Source of the DNA: Candidatus Marinacidobacterales bacterium
GTDB taxonomy: Bacteria; Acidobacteriota; Vicinamibacteria; Marinacidobacterales; DATDRI01
Assembly: GCA_965226495.1 (NCBI GenBank)
Contig: OZ245365.1
Coordinates: forward strand, 2,560,001-2,624,000
Direction: 5' to 3'
DNA length: 64,000 bases
Shown: positions 14,235 to 49,289 of the stretch, in pieces
Layout of the letters: each line of letters starts with the position of its first letter
Numbering within the stretch: position 1 is the stretch's first letter
Made by a program: the position numbers and the translations under genes
The notes under the pieces: generated by a model
What the model saw: only the letters and a program-made list of their open reading frames with translations
What the model was told of the DNA's origin: nothing
Database searches by the model: none

Positions 14235-15455
14235 ATGGGAAACATCAGACCTGCGTCCATCGTGTCGCCCGAAGACCAGCGCGTTACGTTCGTCGAGCTT
14301 TTTTTTGATCTCGTCTTCGTCTTTTCGGTCACCCAGGTTGTCCGACTGCTCCACCATCACCTGGATTGGACGGGGGTCGGGCAGACCGTCCTCGTCTTCT
14401 GGCTCGTATGGTGGGCGTGGTCGCAGTTCACGTGGGCCCTCAACGCAGCGGACACCACACATGCTGGGGTCGAGCTCCTGACCCTTTTAGCCACCGGCGT
14501 CGCGTTCTTCATGGCGGTTTCCCTCCCCAACGCCTTTTCGGGCGGTGGCGCTTGGTTCGCGGTCCCGTACGTGCTGGTGCGAATCATCGGCTTGGGCCTT
14601 TACATCCGGGTCTCCTTGGATGCGGGGCCGTCGCACCGCACAGCGGTCCGAACCTTCGCGCTACTCTCCGTCGGGGGCCTCGCCGCCGTGCTGGCCGGCG
14701 GATTCGCGGGAGGTAGCACAACGTATTGGCTCTGGGGGATCGCGATCCTGCTCGACATCGTTGCCGCACTCGTGGGCGTGGAGGCCGGTGAGTTCGACCT
14801 ACACCCGGACCATTTCGCGGAACGTCACGGCCTGTTTGTGATCATCGCGCTCGGCGAGTCACTCATCGTGGCCGCAGGCGGGCTTTCAGGCGCGGAACGC
14901 CGAGCCAGATCGCGGTGGGCGCGCTGACTGTGGCGACCACGTGTGCCCTTTGGTGGAGCGGAAATCACGCCGAGCCAGATCGCGGTGGGCGCGCTGACTG
15001 TGGCGACCACGTGTGCCCTTTGGTGGAGCTACTTCGGACGCGCCAAGCCCGGGCTGGACGCCGCCTTGGAAGCGGCGAACGGGCCGGACCGAGCGCCACT
15101 GGGGCGCGACGTGTTCACATTGCTGCACTTCGTGATGATCCTGGGGGTCATCGCGTTCGCCGTGGCAGTCGAGGAGGCGGTCCTCCACCCAACGGACGCT
15201 TTGGGTTTGGAGAGTCGCTTGGCGCTGGCGATGGGCGTCGTCCTCTTCACGGGTGGCATGGCGCTCGCCATGTGGCGCGCAATGAGGAAGCTTCCCCTTT
15301 TCAGGGTGTTCGTCGCAGTCGCTACCGGGATCGGCGTCGTGGCGGCGGCAGGCATTCCGCCCGCGCTGCCCGTAGCCATTGCGTTCGTCGGCGTCACGAC
15401 GATCGCGGTTGCCGAACACCGGACTGACGTTCCGGCCTCCACGATCAACCTCTAA
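14235..15455 (+). pseudogene. ltrA: Low temperature requirement protein A (LtrA), interrupted by an imperfect tandem duplication
   Basis: ELFFDLVFVF and HFAERHGLFVIIALGES motifs; both halves lie in the same frame, separated by TGA 14925-14927 inside the duplicated segment. Confidence 0.85.
14892..15027. repeat. Tandem duplication, 70-bp period (first copy 66 bp, lacking ATCA)
   Basis: cgccgagccagatc...tggtggagc occurs at 14898 and 14968. Confidence 0.95.
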
Positions 15456-43279: not shown

Positions 43280-44677
43280 ATGACTCGTGAGTTGTGGCAG
43301 CTCGGCGTTGGCGCGTTGACGTCACGTTACCGAGAGCGGAAGACCTCGCCCAGCGAGGTCATGGCGGCGCTCGCCCAGCGAATCGAGCGGATCGAACCCA
43401 CCGTCAACTCCTTCGCTACGCTCACCCTCGACAAGGCTAGAGAAGAGGCGAAGGTCCTCACCGAAGAGCTGGCCCGAGGTGAGAACCGGGGCGCCCTGCA
43501 CGGGATTCCCGTCGCACTCAAGGAGCTCTTCCACGTCGCGGGAGTAGAGACCTCGTACGGGGCGACATTAATAAAGGTGGTGCCGGACCAGGACGCAGCC
43601 TCCGTACACCGTCTTCGTGAAGCCGGTGCGATCGTTATCGGACTAACCCGCTCCCACGAATGGGGTTGGGGCATCACCACCCAGCACCCAGATGGTGGGG
43701 GTACACGGAATCCCTGGGATCTCACCCGGGTGCCCGGCGGGTCCAGCGGGGGCTCCGCAGCGGCGGTCGCCGCGGGGCTCGTCCCTCTGGCGCTGGGAAC
43801 CGATACCGGAGGTTCCGTCCGCCAACCCGCGAGTTACTGCGGCGTCGTAGGCTTCAAGCCAACGTTTGGTCGAATCCGCCGGGGCGGCGTCTTACCGCTC
43901 GCGCCATCCTTCGATCACATCGGCATCATGGCTCGCGAATCCGGAGATACCGCGATCGCTCTCTCCGTTCTCGCCCGCGGCGCTCCTGAATTACCTAAAC
44001 CGCCTGAATTGCCGGTGCGGGGTCTCCGCGTCGGACTCGCTCCAGACTTGAACGTCCTCGAGCTCAAAACCGAGTACGCCACCACGTTGGATCACGTCAT
44101 CCAGCTCCTCACGAGAGAAGGTGCCATTCTTACCGAGCGGCGCGGGTTGGATCCCGATGAAGTCCTCGCTACCTACCTCACCATCCAAATGGCGGAGGCG
44201 TACGACGTGCACCACGACCGGCTCGAGACCTACCCCAAGAGGGCGACCGGCTATTCCGCGCGCATCCGTGCGCGCCTCGAAGAGGCTCAAACGATCGATT
44301 CGTCTCGTGTCGTGGAAGCTCGCGCGAACGTCCCGCGGATCCGTAAACGATTCGAGACGTTCTTCGAAGGGATCGATGTCCTTCTGACACCCGTTGCCGC
44401 CGCGGGCCCGTCCCTCGTCGCAAACCCAGATACCGTTTCACACCGAGGCGTCGAGGTTCCATTTCGAGATCTCGCGATGCACTACGTGATTCACCAGAAT
44501 CTCACCGGCTTCCCGGCTGTCACGATCCGCGCCGGCTTCGATGAAGAAGGCGTTCCGGTCGGTGTTCAGCTTACGGCCGTGCCAGAGAAAGAGAGCCTGC
44601 TCCTCCAACTAGCGGGGAAGCTCGAAGGGATGCTCGCGACGGACCGCCGAAACTGGCCGCCGCTCGAAGATGGTTGA
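43280..44677 (+). CDS. Amidase (amidase-signature family)
   Basis: LHGIPVALKE, GGSSGGS, GTDTGGSVRQP. Confidence 0.94.
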   Translation: MTRELWQLGVGALTSRYRERKTSPSEVMAALAQRIERIEPTVNSFATLTLDKAREEAKVLTEELARGENRGALHGIPVALKELFHVAGVETSYGATLIKVVPDQDAASVHRLREAGAIVIGLTRSHEWGWGITTQHPDGGGTRNPWDLTRVPGGSSGGSAAAVAAGLVPLALGTDTGGSVRQPASYCGVVGFKPTFGRIRRGGVLPLAPSFDHIGIMARESGDTAIALSVLARGAPELPKPPELPVRGLRVGLAPDLNVLELKTEYATTLDHVIQLLTREGAILTERRGLDPDEVLATYLTIQMAEAYDVHHDRLETYPKRATGYSARIRARLEEAQTIDSSRVVEARANVPRIRKRFETFFEGIDVLLTPVAAAGPSLVANPDTVSHRGVEVPFRDLAMHYVIHQNLTGFPAVTIRAGFDEEGVPVGVQLTAVPEKESLLLQLAGKLEGMLATDRRNWPPLEDG

Positions 44678-44761
44678 GCCTTCTGCCGGGAAGGAGGCGC
44701 CGCCCGGTGTGTGGATAGCTCCTAATCTACTCGGCCTGACAACCGTCACCTTCCTTTTCTA

Positions 44762-44790
44762 TTGACATTTCCGTGACCGAGGTGTAATTA
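44762..44790 (+). promoter_or_regulatory. sigma70-type promoter
   Basis: TTGACA-N17-TAATTA with a T-rich upstream tract. Confidence 0.65.
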
Positions 44791-44796
44791 CTAAAT

Positions 44797-45145
44797 TAGC
44801 TTCCACGGTAGCTTACGCTTGCTACCGCGAACCGGAAAGGAGACACTTCGTGACTCCACCTGGCCATTTGAGGCCTTCAAAAGGCTGAGGCCAGCCGCAC
44901 GCATCACGCGAGCCTGGTCGCTTTTGAAGGTAGGCATACGAGACCGTTTTGACTTAGGTCCGGCCTGTAAACGTATCCTTAGATCGCTGAGCCGAGTTAG
45001 CGCCACAGAATACGGCGCCCCGCGCTCCGATCGGGTCCGGCTTCCAAAAGCCTTTCGGTCGGCTCCCCTAAGTCACTCACTCCTTAGGCTGCTTTCCCAA
45101 GCGGCCCGAAAAGGCGGGGTGTGCACGTGGCCACTCCGCCTTTTC
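44797..45145 (+). ncRNA. Candidate structured non-coding RNA (~350 nt), family not recognised
   Basis: Lies between a promoter and a terminator; many complementary helices including a 9-bp long-range pairing; no credible long ORF. Confidence 0.55.
45108..45145 (+). terminator. Intrinsic terminator-like hairpin
   Basis: GAAAAGGCGGGGTG/CACTCCGCCTTTTC, 14 bp with one G-U pair. Confidence 0.75.
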
Positions 45146-45285
45146 ACATCCACTGCTCCACTTGCGCGTCCCAACTACCGAAGGCTAAAATACGTCTCGC
45201 ATTTGGAAGCGTTGTCTAACTCCGAGGTGGGTGCCGCCACACCTTGGTCAGTCGAAATCGTCAACCGTATTGGGGGTCAGCAACC

Positions 45286-46314
45286 ATGGCAGAACTCGAT
45301 CCATCCAAGATCTTGCAAGTCGGACTCGGCTACTGGGGTTCGAAAACTCTACTGAGCGCCGTGGAACTTGGCCTCTTCACCGAGCTCGCACGTCAGCCGA
45401 TGACCGGAAAACAAGTCGAGGCGAAGCTAGGGTTGCATCCTCGCGCCACTTACGACTTCCTCGATGCAGTGCTTGCGCTCGGTTTCCTACGGCGCGACGG
45501 AGACGGCGCGGACGGCGTTTATCGCAATACCGAAGAGACCCAGGCCTTCTTGGATCGAGAATCCCTCCGCTACATCGGTGGGATGCTCGAAATGAGCAAC
45601 GCACGCCAGTTCGCCTACTGGAACGACCTCACCGAAGGGCTGCGCACCGGCAAGCCGCAAAACGAGGTAAAGCACACCGGCAAGTCGATCTTCGAGGTGC
45701 TCTATGCTGACCCCGCGCAGCTCGAGAGCTTCATGAACGCGATGGCCGGCATCTCGATGGGTAACTTCAACGCCTTCGCACAGAAGTTCGACTTCTCGCC
45801 CTACAAGACGATGTGCGACGTGGGCGGGGCGACGGGGCAACTGTCGATCGTCTGTGCGCAACACAATCCTCACTTGAAGTGTATAAGCTTTGATCTGCCA
45901 CCGGTGGCGCCCATTGCGCAACAGAGCATCGACGCCGCCGGGATGAGCGGCCGGATCGAAACTGCCCAGGGCAACTTTTTCACGGACCCCTTGCCCGCGG
46001 CAGACCTCATCACCATGGGCATGATCCTGCACGACTGGAACTTGGAGAAAAAGATGCACCTGGTCCGGTCGGTCTACGACGCGCTGCCCCCCGGGGGGAC
46101 GTTCGCGGTCATCGAAAACCTCATCGATGACGCGCGGCGGGAGAACGTGTTTGGCCTCTTGATGTCACTCAACATGCTGCTCGAATTCGGAGACGCCTTC
46201 GACTTCACGGGCGCCGACTTCGACGGCTGGTGCCGGGAGGTGGGCTTCGAGCGGACCGAGGTACTTCACCTCGCCGGGCCCGCGAGCACGGGCATCGCCT
46301 ACAAAGCTAAGTGA
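45286..46314 (+). CDS. SAM-dependent O-methyltransferase (Methyltransf_2 plus dimerisation domain)
   Basis: AVELGLF, CDVGGATG, GNFF, ILHDW. Confidence 0.92.
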   Translation: MAELDPSKILQVGLGYWGSKTLLSAVELGLFTELARQPMTGKQVEAKLGLHPRATYDFLDAVLALGFLRRDGDGADGVYRNTEETQAFLDRESLRYIGGMLEMSNARQFAYWNDLTEGLRTGKPQNEVKHTGKSIFEVLYADPAQLESFMNAMAGISMGNFNAFAQKFDFSPYKTMCDVGGATGQLSIVCAQHNPHLKCISFDLPPVAPIAQQSIDAAGMSGRIETAQGNFFTDPLPAADLITMGMILHDWNLEKKMHLVRSVYDALPPGGTFAVIENLIDDARRENVFGLLMSLNMLLEFGDAFDFTGADFDGWCREVGFERTEVLHLAGPASTGIAYKAK

Positions 46315-46324
46315 AGTGATCTGC

Positions 46325-47497
46325 TCATGTAGCTACCGTCCCGACGTCGAAAGCAACGGCGAGACGGTCGGCCACCGCGAGTCCATCGAGTGTCGGTCGG
46401 AGCGAGTCTTCTTCGAGCTCGACGAGTCCGTCGGCAGAGAGCTTCGCAACGAGGGTCTCGTTGATCTTCAGGAGGTCGACGTCGAACCGCTCGCGTACCC
46501 AGGCAAGATTTAAGCCGTCCTTGGTGCGCATGCGGAGCATGACCGCCTCTAGAAGAAAGTCCTCGTCGCCGAGCGTCTCTCGCCCATCGACCGCACTCTC
46601 CCCGCGGCCGATCTTCTTCTCCCAATCGAAAAGCGAACGCTCGTTCCAAAAACGGGAACGACCGTCGAAGGAATGGGCCGAGGGCCCCAGACCGAGGTAC
46701 GGAGTGTGGTACCAGTATTTCTGGTTGTGGCGCGAGCGGTGCGATTCGGAGCGGGCGAAGTTCGAGACTTCGTAGCCCTCATAGCCCGCATCGGCGAGAA
46801 ACTCATGCGTAAGGCGAAAAAGCTCGGCCTGTCGGTCCTCCGAAACCTCCATGACCTCCCCTTCGCTTTTCCTCCGCCCAAAGAGTGTCTGGTCGTGAAT
46901 CGTCAGCTGGTAGCAAGACAGATGATCGGGCGCTAGGGCGACGGCCGCTTCCAGCTCCTTTCGCCAGCCGGCGACCTCCTGTCCCGGACGGCCGTATATG
47001 AGATCCAGAGAAAGCTCGTTAATGCCGGCCTCGCGCGCGAGGCCGACACTCCGGCGCACGTCGTCAACGGTATGGTGCCGACCCAGCCACCCAAGTGCAT
47101 CGTCGTCCAACGCCTGAACACCCAGCGACAGCGTTCCGATGCTGAGCTCTCGGCAGACGGAGAGCGAAGAGGGGTTTACGTCTTCCGGGTTGGCCTCCAA
47201 AAACCATCGACAACTAGGGGCTAGCCAACCCTTCTCGGCAATGGCTTCTGCGATCTCCGATAGGCCCTCGCCGTAGAGGAACGATGGGGTCCCACCTCCG
47301 AAGTACACGGTGTCGAAGCCCCGAATCTCCTCATCGGCGAGATCGATCTCTCTCAATAGCTGTGAGACGAATCGCTCCTGCCGCGAGTGGTTTCCCGTGA
47401 GCACCGCGAAGTCGCAGTAGGGACAGATCGAAGAGCAGAAAGGAATGTGAACGTAGAGTCCGGGCTTACTCGACTTCGAAGACCGATCAGTCTTCAT
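46325..47497 (-). CDS. hemW: Radical SAM heme chaperone HemW
   Basis: LYVHIPFCSSICPYCDF, GGGTPS, YEVSNF, HNQKYW; adjacent to lepA. Confidence 0.9.
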   Translation of the reverse strand: MKTDRSSKSSKPGLYVHIPFCSSICPYCDFAVLTGNHSRQERFVSQLLREIDLADEEIRGFDTVYFGGGTPSFLYGEGLSEIAEAIAEKGWLAPSCRWFLEANPEDVNPSSLSVCRELSIGTLSLGVQALDDDALGWLGRHHTVDDVRRSVGLAREAGINELSLDLIYGRPGQEVAGWRKELEAAVALAPDHLSCYQLTIHDQTLFGRRKSEGEVMEVSEDRQAELFRLTHEFLADAGYEGYEVSNFARSESHRSRHNQKYWYHTPYLGLGPSAHSFDGRSRFWNERSLFDWEKKIGRGESAVDGRETLGDEDFLLEAVMLRMRTKDGLNLAWVRERFDVDLLKINETLVAKLSADGLVELEEDSLRPTLDGLAVADRLAVAFDVGTVAT

Positions 47498-49289
47498 CCG
47501 TCTTGAGGACGGCCACGAAGGCCGCTTGAGGAATCTCGACGGCACCCACCATCTTCATGCGCCTCTTCCCTTCCTTCTGCTTCTCGAGGAGTTTTCGTTT
47601 GCGGGTGATGTCTCCACCGTAGCACCTGGCGGTGACGTCTTTCCGGTAGGCGTTGATGGTCGTGCGCGCAATGATATTGCCTCCGATAGCCCCCTGAATG
47701 GCAATTTTGAACTGTTGCTTAGGAATGGCTTCGGCGAGACGCTCACAGTAGTGAAGCGCCCGCGGACGGGCCTTGTCCACGTGTACGAGCTGCGAGAGGG
47801 CATCGACACTCTCGCCGTTGACGAGAATGTCCACCTTGGCAATCTTCGTCTCACGATAATCGAGCATGTCGTAATCGAAAGAACCATAGCCCTGGGTGAC
47901 GGTTTTCAGGCGGTCATAGAAGTCGAAGAGCACCTCGGCCAAAGGTAGCTCCGAGGTGAGCTCGACCCTCCCTACCGCCAGGTAGTGGAACGTCGTATTC
48001 ACACCGCGGCGGTCACGGCAAAGCTCCATGACGACCCCCAAGTACTTCTCCGGCATCATCACCGAAGCCTTGATGTAAGGCTCTTCAGACTTGATGATCT
48101 GCATCGGATCCGGGAAGCGGCTCGGGTTGTCTATCATCACCACACCCTCCTTCTCGAGGGTGAGGCGGTATTTAACCGACGGAGCGGAGAGCAGCAAGGA
48201 GAGGTCGTACTCGCGCTGAAGGCGTTCCTGGATCACATCTAGATGCAAGAGGCCGAGAAAGCCGCAGCGAAACCCATACCCTAGAGCCGCCGAAGAGTCC
48301 TTCTCATAGGTCAGGGCCGGATCGTTGAGCGTGAGCTTGTCCAGTGCTTTCGTCAGGTCTTCGTAGTCGTCGGTGGACATCGGGTAGATGGAAGAAAAGA
48401 CGACCGGCTTGGCTTCCTTGTACCCCGGCAAGGGCTGTGGCGCTGGGTTCTCCTTATGGGTGATGGTGTCGCCGATGGCAATTTCGTGCACCGCCTTGAT
48501 GTTGGCGATCACGTAACCCACCGCCCCGGCGGAAAGCTCCTCTTGCTTTACCCGTTTGAGCTGGAGCAGTCCCACTTCCTCGACATCGTAGTCCTTCCCA
48601 CTGTGCATCAACTGTATTGTCTGTCCGGACTTCATGGTTCCCTGCTTGATACGGCAATACAGAACCACGCCACGATAAACGTCGTACTGTGCGTCGAAGA
48701 TGAGCGCCTGGAGCGGGGCCTCGGGATCGCCACTAGGAGCCGGTAGCTTCTCGATGATGGCCTCCAGAAGCTCGTCGATTCCCTGCCCCAGCTTGGCCGA
48801 AACGGGAATCGCTTCCAGGGCATCGAGCCCCAAATCTTTTTCAATTTCCTCTTGGACTCTGTCGATGTCGGCGGCGGGGAGATCGATCTTGTTGATGATG
48901 GGAAGCAACGTGAGATCGTGCTCTGTCGCCAGATAAAGGTTCGCAACCGTCTGCGCCTCGACACCTTGAGCGGCGTCCACCAGGATGAGCGCCCCATCGC
49001 TGGACATCATGGAGCGACGCACCTCGTGGGAGAAGTCCACGTGACCGGGCGTGTCGATGAGATTGAGTAGGTAGTCGCGTCCGTCCTTCGCCTTATAGTT
49101 CAGACTGACGGTGTTGCTCTTGATCGTAATCCCCCGCTCCCGCTCCAAATCCATGGAGTCCAGGAGCTGGTCACGGAAGTCCCGGTCGGCGACCCCTCCG
49201 CACCGCTGGATGAGGCGATCGGCAAGCGTGGATTTCCCATGGTCGATGTGGGCGATAATGCAGAAGTTTCGGATTTGCGTAAGGGCCAT
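47487..49289 (-). CDS. lepA: Elongation factor 4
   Basis: IRNFCIIAHIDHGKSTLADR, GFRCGFLGLLH, CYGGDITRKRKLLEKQKEGK. Confidence 0.98.
   Translation of the reverse strand: MALTQIRNFCIIAHIDHGKSTLADRLIQRCGGVADRDFRDQLLDSMDLERERGITIKSNTVSLNYKAKDGRDYLLNLIDTPGHVDFSHEVRRSMMSSDGALILVDAAQGVEAQTVANLYLATEHDLTLLPIINKIDLPAADIDRVQEEIEKDLGLDALEAIPVSAKLGQGIDELLEAIIEKLPAPSGDPEAPLQALIFDAQYDVYRGVVLYCRIKQGTMKSGQTIQLMHSGKDYDVEEVGLLQLKRVKQEELSAGAVGYVIANIKAVHEIAIGDTITHKENPAPQPLPGYKEAKPVVFSSIYPMSTDDYEDLTKALDKLTLNDPALTYEKDSSAALGYGFRCGFLGLLHLDVIQERLQREYDLSLLLSAPSVKYRLTLEKEGVVMIDNPSRFPDPMQIIKSEEPYIKASVMMPEKYLGVVMELCRDRRGVNTTFHYLAVGRVELTSELPLAEVLFDFYDRLKTVTQGYGSFDYDMLDYRETKIAKVDILVNGESVDALSQLVHVDKARPRALHYCERLAEAIPKQQFKIAIQGAIGGNIIARTTINAYRKDVTARCYGGDITRKRKLLEKQKEGKRRMKMVGAVEIPQAAFVAVLKTDED

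Follow-up and report, generated by a model that had tools for sequence, protein, structure and literature searches.

What kind of gene, if any, occupies positions 44755–45149 of the window, the 64,000-nucleotide (nt) stretch of a Candidatus Marinacidobacterales genome analyzed here (GenBank assembly GCA_965226495.1, contig OZ245365.1, positions 2,560,001 to 2,624,000)? A preliminary description had seen there a self-contained, highly structured RNA of about 350 nt and left two options open: an undescribed large structured noncoding RNA, or an attenuator leader for the O-methyltransferase gene that follows. Our results favor the first option and argue against the second. The unit has no Rfam family, its promoter and terminator are conserved, several of its helices covary and contigs from RNA libraries lie on it. 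We consider it very likely that a stable, highly structured small RNA (sRNA) of ~340–350 nt is encoded here by a gene of its own, with a sigma-70-like promoter and an intrinsic terminator, and that it represents a family outside Rfam 15. Four observations carry this reading: the gene has clear boundaries, its fold is conserved, RNA libraries contain it and it is not tied to the neighboring genes.

Homologs and gene boundaries

The unit is single-copy in its 6.34-Mb genome (G000). A BLAST-type search among relatives recovered full-length homologs in two other genomes, G002 of the same genus (82% identity) and G003 of the same family (74%), both matching positions 1–391 of the query; the other 58 relatives searched gave none. 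Within the family, the RNA is present in three of eight genomes, the window's own included (two of the seven others). A covariance model built from three sequences, with the first 12 columns and the terminator left out (R1), found the same three among the 55 genomes of the order and none in the other 47 of the order outside the family. A second model built from six sequences (R2) was run on 151 genomes of the class and matched G000 and G003 alone (G002 was absent from that sample), which leaves the 145 class-level genomes beyond the family without a case; 150 further genomes of the phylum yielded none either. Because the filters in these large searches were stricter and few candidates were scored in each genome, weak relatives could have escaped them.

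An exact pattern taken from the invariant hairpin described below matched two stretches in a species-representative genome collection, which we take to be G002 and G003 because their model scores equal those of the two genomes. A pattern of the same kind also matched four metagenome contigs, all of which score strongly under the model (150–271 bits). Two of the loci (L020 and L021) are identical across the region, which gives six distinct sequences in total. The homologs anticipated by the preliminary description therefore exist, but as far as these searches reach they appear limited to a subset of one family of uncultured Acidobacteriota (Candidatus Marinacidobacterales) and a few metagenome contigs. 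Two further model matches, L019:5709-5757 (E 0.25) and window positions 15058–15153 on the − strand (E 0.5), were dropped as chance matches. An origin from a mobile element was considered and rejected, as plasmid, phage and viral collections held no match to the unit and it occurs once in the genome.

Across an alignment of seven loci, homology begins at a T-rich stretch and −35 element and ends just past the terminator. Relative to G003, both flanks are unalignable and the likeness stops just 3′ of the terminator. The predicted outline of the gene is as follows.

44755–44790, + strand: promoter, with a T-rich stretch, −35 TTGACA (44762–44767), a 17-nt spacer and −10 TAATTA (44785–44790)
44797–45149, + strand: predicted transcript of ~340–353 nt, with a predicted start near 44797; RNA-library contigs begin at 44806
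45109–45149, + strand: intrinsic terminator, with an A tract, a G+C-rich stem of ~14 bp, then UUUU

Every motif listed in the preliminary description was found at its coordinates on inspection of the sequence, including both of these signals: the promoter hexamers with their spacing and the terminator hairpin, placed there at 45108–45145, are kept in all seven loci. The −35 hexamer and the T-rich stretch before it are invariant, the upstream box TTTTCT(A/C)TTGACATT is invariant or nearly so, and the −10 element reads TAATTA, TATTTA or TAACTA. The terminator hairpin and its U run are likewise retained in 7/7 loci, with exchanges in the stem (GC, GU or CG at columns 323/361; GU in three sequences versus GC in three at columns 333/351). 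A candidate anti-terminator pairing of CCCCGC (45019–24) with GCGGGG of the terminator was set aside, as by inspection it is not kept in G003 or L020.

A consensus scan for promoters and terminators over 44300–45700 called no site. Its rules demand T at the last −10 position and at least five T after the stem, and both signals went uncalled because the −10 element here ends in A and the U run is four long. We do not count this missed call against the promoter or terminator, since the rules exclude what all homologs keep. A promoter and terminator of its own, conserved together with the RNA, would fit an independent sRNA gene. Long open reading frames (ORFs) are predicted across the unit, but indels of 1, 2, 4 and 5 nt scattered along it, together with mismatches that lack three-base periodicity, indicate that these are not genes.

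Known RNA families

A cmscan search of the whole window against the 4227 models of Rfam 15 gave no match at gathering scores. A permissive scan of 44650–45320, with E up to 10, returned only two chance matches of 14–15 bits, both on the terminator hairpin; at the same threshold, homolog L019 gave none and homolog L020 four weak chance matches (11–15 bits). The claim of novelty thus held up against Rfam for the window copy and two homologs, and no known riboswitch model in Rfam 15 matches the unit. The preliminary description had also found no sign of RNase P RNA or transfer-messenger RNA (tmRNA), and the corresponding models do match elsewhere in the genome, not in the window: RNase P RNA (RF00010) lies at C1:4679515-4679886 (301 bits) and tmRNA (RF00023) at C1:5341135-5341482 (174 bits). 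6S RNA (RF00013) is likewise outside the window, at C1:1663744-1663919 (107.6 bits). All three score above their model cut-offs.

The searchable open-access literature describes no sRNA for the Marinacidobacterales lineage, and among open-access texts on acidobacteria, sponges and metatranscriptomes no paper points to the unit. Two papers that combine acidobacteria, structured noncoding RNA and covariation (PMC2864571, PMC7749635) are general motif-discovery papers. The suggestion that the RNA might be ribozyme-like is without support, as there is no evidence here for a ribozyme. Motifs from the two motif-discovery papers are reportedly already in Rfam. By these comparisons, the unit appears to represent a family absent from Rfam 15 within a known class, that of stand-alone structured sRNAs of bacteria.

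Presence in RNA libraries

Six RNA runs contained 10–18% of the sampled words of a 1.6-kb stretch, and four of them, metatranscriptome runs from three studies, were compared with the locus. Their contigs, 107–283 nt long, lie inside 44806–45124, and the fitted part of every contig falls inside the unit. Contigs of runs X1–X3 show no differences from the window sequence, and run X6 includes a variant contig. Contigs of X2 and X6, from two studies, start at 44806, the first base of helix 1, and an X6 contig has adapter letters just before it; this is a weak hint of a 5′ end at that base, ~9 nt past the start that the −10 element predicts. The flanks 44200–44793 and 45172–45800 gave no contig, although we do not take the uncovered parts as evidence on the neighbors. 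The unit is represented in RNA libraries, in contigs that are silent on the strand, ends and level of a transcript.

A conserved fold

The preliminary description had proposed folding-energy and covariation checks, and the first came out clearly. The + strand of 44795–45150 has a minimum free energy of −145.6 kcal/mol versus −121.1 ± 6.6 for 100 dinucleotide shuffles, none of which folds as well (z −3.70); the − strand gives z −2.96. We derived a consensus structure from three sequences (window, G002 and G003) and applied it by model to six in an alignment, A7, that leaves out L021, which is identical to L020 across the aligned region. The consensus fold has 92 pairs in 12 helices and 91.4% of 538 cells are paired, a figure inflated, like the other pairing figures below, by the fitting of A7 to the model structure. 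Both-sided changes occur in 19 of the 92 pairs, compared with 7.9 ± 2.1 in shuffles (0 of 500 reach 19) and 2–6 in slid controls. This suggests that the fold is conserved by compensatory changes, and the covariation among six sequences, although above shuffles, is suggestive and not statistically decisive. The three sequences that took no part in deriving the structure keep 87–90% of its pairs. RNAalifold, run on a MAFFT alignment, predicted 103 pairs, of which 11 have compensatory changes. Paired cells include 44 G·U versus 16 A·C, an excess that favors the + strand. The elements of the fold, with the short ORF embedded in it, are listed here.

44806–44827, + strand: helix 1, hairpin CGGUAGC/GCUACCG; 95% of cells paired, with U-A replaced by C-G in two of six sequences
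44835–44857, + strand: helix 3, hairpin GGAGaCAC-loop-GUGaCUCC after the invariant GAAAGGAG; all seven pairs invariant in 6/6, loop variable
44850–44888, + strand: 12-codon ORF GTG...TGA, (M)TPPG[HD]xxPS[KR][GA], start 7 nt after GGAG
44873–44931, + strand: helices 5 and 6, stem GCCUUCAAAAGGC/GCUUUUGAAGGU around 44889–44898/44908–44919, 9-nt loop; helix 5 is 97% paired with one pair changed on both sides, helix 6 is 95% paired with 4/10 pairs changed on both sides
44932–44979, + strand: local stem around the 5′ strand of helix 8, AGGcAUACG/CGUAUCCU (44932–40/44972–79) and/or CGUUU/AAACG (44945–49/44969–73)
within 44951–45074, + strand: helix 8, long-range, GACUUAGG (44951–58)/CCUAAGUC (45067–74), closing the 3′ domain with helix 9; 96% paired, one pair being C-G in three sequences and U-A in two
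within 44951–45074, + strand: helix 9, long-range, CCGGCC (44960–65)/GGUCGG (45057–62); 87% paired, with no double change, and poorly kept in two group-B sequences
44982–45032, + strand: helix 10, long irregular hairpin of variable sequence; 9/17 pairs double-changed and 80% of cells paired in the model-fitted alignment
45039–45052, + strand: helix 11, hairpin GGCUU(CCAA)AAGCC; 97% paired, nearly invariant
45071–45085, + strand: C/U-rich segment AGUCACUCACUCCUU, conserved and mostly unpaired in the consensus fold
45086–45107, + strand: helix 12, hairpin with a conserved UUCCCAA loop; 94% paired, 5/9 pairs varying on one side only

Comparative support for the predicted fold centers on helix 1, helices 5 and 6, the long-range helix 8 and the variable hairpin 10; helices 4, 7 and 9 appear weak. 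In helix 10, the variant X6 contig pairs 45004 C>T with 45014 G>A, a compensatory change in a loop-adjacent pair. The fold retains most of what had been drawn by eye, namely the helices at 44806/44821 and 44839–44857, CCTTCAAAAG/CTTTTGAAGG (44874/44921), TGACTTAGG/CCTAAGTCA (44950/45067) and GGCTGCTT/AAGCGGCC (45087–45106, our helix 12). A small GGCTG/CAGCC hairpin gives way to the longer, covarying helix 6, and GAGCCGA/TCGGCTC (44989/45059), 79% paired, does not rise above shuffles. A mixed result was obtained for AGGcATACG/CGTATCCT (44932/44972). Its sequences are present and 4/8 of its pairs are double-changed, a value that 4 of 500 shuffles reach, but it is only 73% paired and is broken in the X6 variant.

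This last stem bears on the long-range pseudoknot that had been proposed. The overlapping alternative, CGUUU/AAACG, reaches 93% paired and shows no double change in the six sequences. In the X6 variant contig, 44945 C>T is accompanied by 44973 G>A; the CGUUU/AAACG stem is kept under these changes, and a C-G pair of the stem proposed earlier is lost. Because the 5′ strand of helix 8 lies within both local stems, a pseudoknot would arise if either of them formed at the same time as helix 8. Only 1 nt separates the local stem from the 14–15 bp long-range helix, so that full coexistence of the two is doubtful on steric grounds. Each of the two helices has some comparative support, and the local stem and helix 8 may be alternative states. 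A pseudoknot is possible, in a fold where the predicted long-range pairing is nested and the local stem would compete with it.

A ribosome-binding site and short ORF within the RNA

The 5′ part of the unit raises the question of whether the RNA is translated. The invariant GAAAGGAG (44835–44842) is the exact complement of 8 nt of this genome's 16S-like 3′ end, GGATCACCTCCTTTCT. It precedes ORFs of at least 60 amino acids at 71 of its 291 genomic sites, and so serves as a real ribosome-binding site in this organism. In the unit, this Shine–Dalgarno (SD) sequence, the GUG start codon and the open frame that follows are conserved in 6/6 distinct sequences; the ORF has equal length in all six, and its stop codon is TGA in five and TAA in one. 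The unit could accordingly be a dual-function or coding RNA in which the ORF at 44850–44888 is translated, the peptide or the act of translation is the function, and the remainder of the molecule would adjust how accessible the SD sequence and start codon are. We regard this as unlikely, although it fares best among the alternatives to a stand-alone sRNA gene.

Several features speak for translation. An 8-nt SD complement with GUG 7 nt after GGAG is invariant, the sequence is used before other ORFs, the frame keeps its length through a switch between TGA and TAA, and one change in the ORF, CCT>CCC, is synonymous. The arrangement also looks like a translation gate, in that the SD sequence and start codon can pair locally in helix 3 or with the distal segment 45071–45085. 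The latter (AGUCAC-UCA-CUCCUU) is complementary in two 6-nt blocks to AAGGAG (44837–42) and GUGACU (44850–55), resembles an anti-SD sequence and shares positions with the 3′ strand of helix 8. This distal pairing is possible in 68 of 68 cells; it shows no covariation, and its only changes, two from C to U, retain G·U. The predicted peptide contains a Pro-Pro-Gly stretch, and such stretches stall ribosomes in the absence of EF-P.

The pattern of codon change is nevertheless explained as well by the RNA. Codons 1–5 and 9–10 sit in invariant or paired RNA segments, which alone would account for their conservation. Codons 6–8 change freely and non-synonymously (CAT/GAC/GAT; TTG/TCG/ATA/TCA/ACA; AGG/GGG/AAG), and codons 11–12 change together with their pairing partners in helix 5. 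With the fixed codons in invariant or paired segments, the variable ones non-synonymous and two covarying, selection on coding cannot be shown. The SD sequence and start codon both lie buried within the invariant 7-bp hairpin of helix 3, and a peptide of 12 amino acids would leave 250 further conserved, structured nt unexplained.

Independence from neighboring genes

If the RNA were instead a cis-acting leader, a riboswitch or attenuator governing read-through of the terminator into the O-methyltransferase gene, its neighbors should matter. Each of the six distinct copies has a different gene upstream: the window has an amidase, G002 an AdoHcyase-like gene, G003 a Macro-domain gene, L020 an F420-type oxidoreductase, L023 an SDR gene on the other strand and L022 an ORF with no Pfam match. 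Downstream, the window, G002, L022 and L023 have an O-methyltransferase gene (PF00891/PF08100) on the same strand, ~135–165 nt past the terminator. In G003 and L020/L021, however, the RNA faces a convergent peptidase S9 gene whose stop codon lies ~26 nt beyond it. A comparison of neighboring genes had been proposed as a means of telling action in trans from action in cis, and its outcome is that the upstream gene differs at each locus and the downstream gene is not constant. None of the genes adjoining the RNA in the window is a mobile-element gene.

The leader option draws on the same-strand O-methyltransferase after four of six distinct copies, on the intrinsic terminator that closes the unit as it closes attenuators, and on the AdoHcyase-like gene upstream in G002. 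Yet two of the six copies have nothing to read into, and the O-methyltransferase ortholog of G004 (59% identity) has no R2 match upstream, even with filters off. The main argument against a leader is this double dissociation: the RNA occurs without the methyltransferase, and the methyltransferase without the RNA. Synteny common to close relatives is expected from descent alone, the interval 45230–45285 could carry a promoter of the O-methyltransferase gene itself, and known riboswitch models in Rfam 15 do not match. We therefore consider a leader very unlikely, and we infer that the RNA acts in trans and not on the adjoining gene.

Least probable is a very divergent member of a described family missed by Rfam, or a published family not yet included there; although Rfam holds only curated families and the literature covered was open-access text, three divergent homologs gave nothing at E = 10 beyond chance hairpin matches, RNase P RNA, tmRNA and 6S RNA are already present elsewhere in the genome, and no paper pointing to the unit was found in the open-access literature.

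Points that temper the assignment

A number of observations weigh against the assignment to a stand-alone noncoding sRNA gene. There are only six distinct sequences, all fairly close, and the pairing statistics come from an alignment fitted to the structure they are meant to assess. In the three test sequences, novel pair states are more often unpaired (8, 7 and 8) than paired (4, 3 and 9), which indicates that parts of the model are wrong or variable, namely helices 4, 7 and 9 and parts of 10. The transcript evidence consists of assembled contigs that carry no strand, ends or level, and carry-over of DNA is formally possible. Four of six copies lie 135–165 nt upstream of a same-strand O-methyltransferase gene. 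The invariant strong SD sequence, GUG start and 12-codon ORF mean that a purely noncoding reading is not secure. Finally, the complementarity scan described below gave no convincing target.

Possible modes of action

How a stand-alone sRNA of this kind would work is a more speculative matter. Our leading guess, a tentative one, is a base-pairing regulator of mRNAs. Such a regulator would use its invariant unpaired C/U-rich segments (ACUCACUCCUU at 45075–45085 and, in helix 12, the UUCCCAA loop) to base-pair with mRNAs in their purine-rich ribosome-binding regions, and the unit's own GAAAGGAG/GUG region would be kept in its hairpin or bound by the distal C/U-rich segment. Searching the genome for the complement of the conserved 16-nt segment 45071–45086, with up to 3 mismatches allowed, returned 20 matches and nothing convincing: one is the RNA gene itself, none has fewer than 3 mismatches and none stands in a clear start-codon context, although the scan is too crude to exclude targets. 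A protein-binding role, or one as a scaffold for a ribonucleoprotein (RNP), is nearly as likely, if somewhat more doubtful. A sponge for CsrA was rejected on inspection, since only two GGA motifs occur in the 5′ part, too few for that role (the CsrA protein itself was not searched for). The target scan also met two sets of three near-identical 50-nt contexts, at G000:C1 601343, 613626 and 632357 (all +) and at 1359397 (+), 2628273 (+) and 4417187 (−), which are repeated genes or elements unrelated to the RNA.

A bolder and improbable alternative sees in the RNA a ribosome decoy or a self-contained, translation-coupled switch, or else a new RNP scaffold or catalytic RNA. In a switch, the SD sequence, GUG and Pro-Pro-Gly mini-ORF would be held alternately by the local hairpin and by the anti-SD-like distal segment, and ribosomes that initiate or stall on the mini-ORF would rearrange the 250-nt 3′ domain, exposing or hiding the C/U-rich segments. 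If this were true, the RNA would regulate in trans, with an activity that reflects the translational state.

Comparison with described RNAs

The sRNAs of the RsaE/RoxS type are stand-alone RNAs whose unpaired C-rich motifs pair with Shine–Dalgarno regions. Our unit resembles them in its own promoter and intrinsic terminator, its C/U-rich loops and linkers (UUCCCAA and ACUCACUCCUU) and its independence of neighbors. Unlike them, it is 3–4 times longer and multi-branched, with at least 10 helices; it shares no sequence or model similarity with them, and it carries an SD-like box and start codon as well. The raiA motif, OLE, ROOL, GOLLD and HEARO are large structured noncoding RNAs, whose models we take to be in Rfam. 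Like these, the unit is a long multi-helix RNA with conserved unpaired nt and covariation that turns up in transcript libraries and has no obvious cis target. However, it matches no model, is smaller than OLE, ROOL and GOLLD, has a far narrower distribution and lacks an associated protein gene.

SgrS/SgrT, RNAIII/hld and SR1/SR1P are dual-function sRNAs that encode a small peptide. The unit is similar in being a structured RNA with a short predicted ORF and a genuine-looking SD sequence and start codon, but its predicted peptide would have 12 residues and its conserved codons coincide with RNA helices. With leader-peptide attenuators and riboswitch leaders it shares a short ORF, alternative pairings, an intrinsic terminator and, after four copies, a same-strand gene, whereas two of six copies have no same-strand downstream gene and one ortholog of the O-methyltransferase gene stands without such an RNA.

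Among bacterial RNAs, long ones that keep a multi-helix fold and have no assigned family are rare, and several have proved unusual in function. The unit is unusual in its size, its conserved fold and its SD/anti-SD-like arrangement; it could be put forward as a new Rfam family and is suited to structure probing. It has clean gene boundaries, RNA-library contigs from three studies and, oddly, an invariant ribosome-binding site combined with an anti-SD-like segment, although the narrow distribution, with six distinct sequences, restricts the statistical support for the fold as well as the wider importance of the unit.

Flanking sequences

Some further observations concern the genes around the RNA. 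Between the terminator and the O-methyltransferase ATG (45286), the + strand interval 45230–45285 is nearly identical in the window and G002; it may hold the promoter of the O-methyltransferase gene and a short 5′ untranslated region with no obvious SD sequence. In the same-genus genome G001, which has no RNA gene, only a 3′ remnant of the O-methyltransferase gene is found (residues 296–341, 87% identity), at L026 1501-1638 (G001:C23:283692-283829). This suggests that a deletion in G001 may have removed both the RNA and most of the O-methyltransferase gene. The G004 ortholog, at L024 1501-2517 (G004:C34:40283-41299), has one in-frame TAG inside the match, which could be a sequencing error, a pseudogene or read-through.

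In group-B loci, the peptidase S9 gene, at L003 1916-3373 (−) and L020 8293-10266 (−), ends no more than a few tens of bases from the RNA terminator, on the opposite strand, and the hairpin with its A tract and U tract may act there as a two-way terminator. Past the O-methyltransferase gene in the window, 46325–49289 on the − strand holds a HemN-like radical SAM gene and lepA (EF4), transcribed opposite to the RNA, a housekeeping context.

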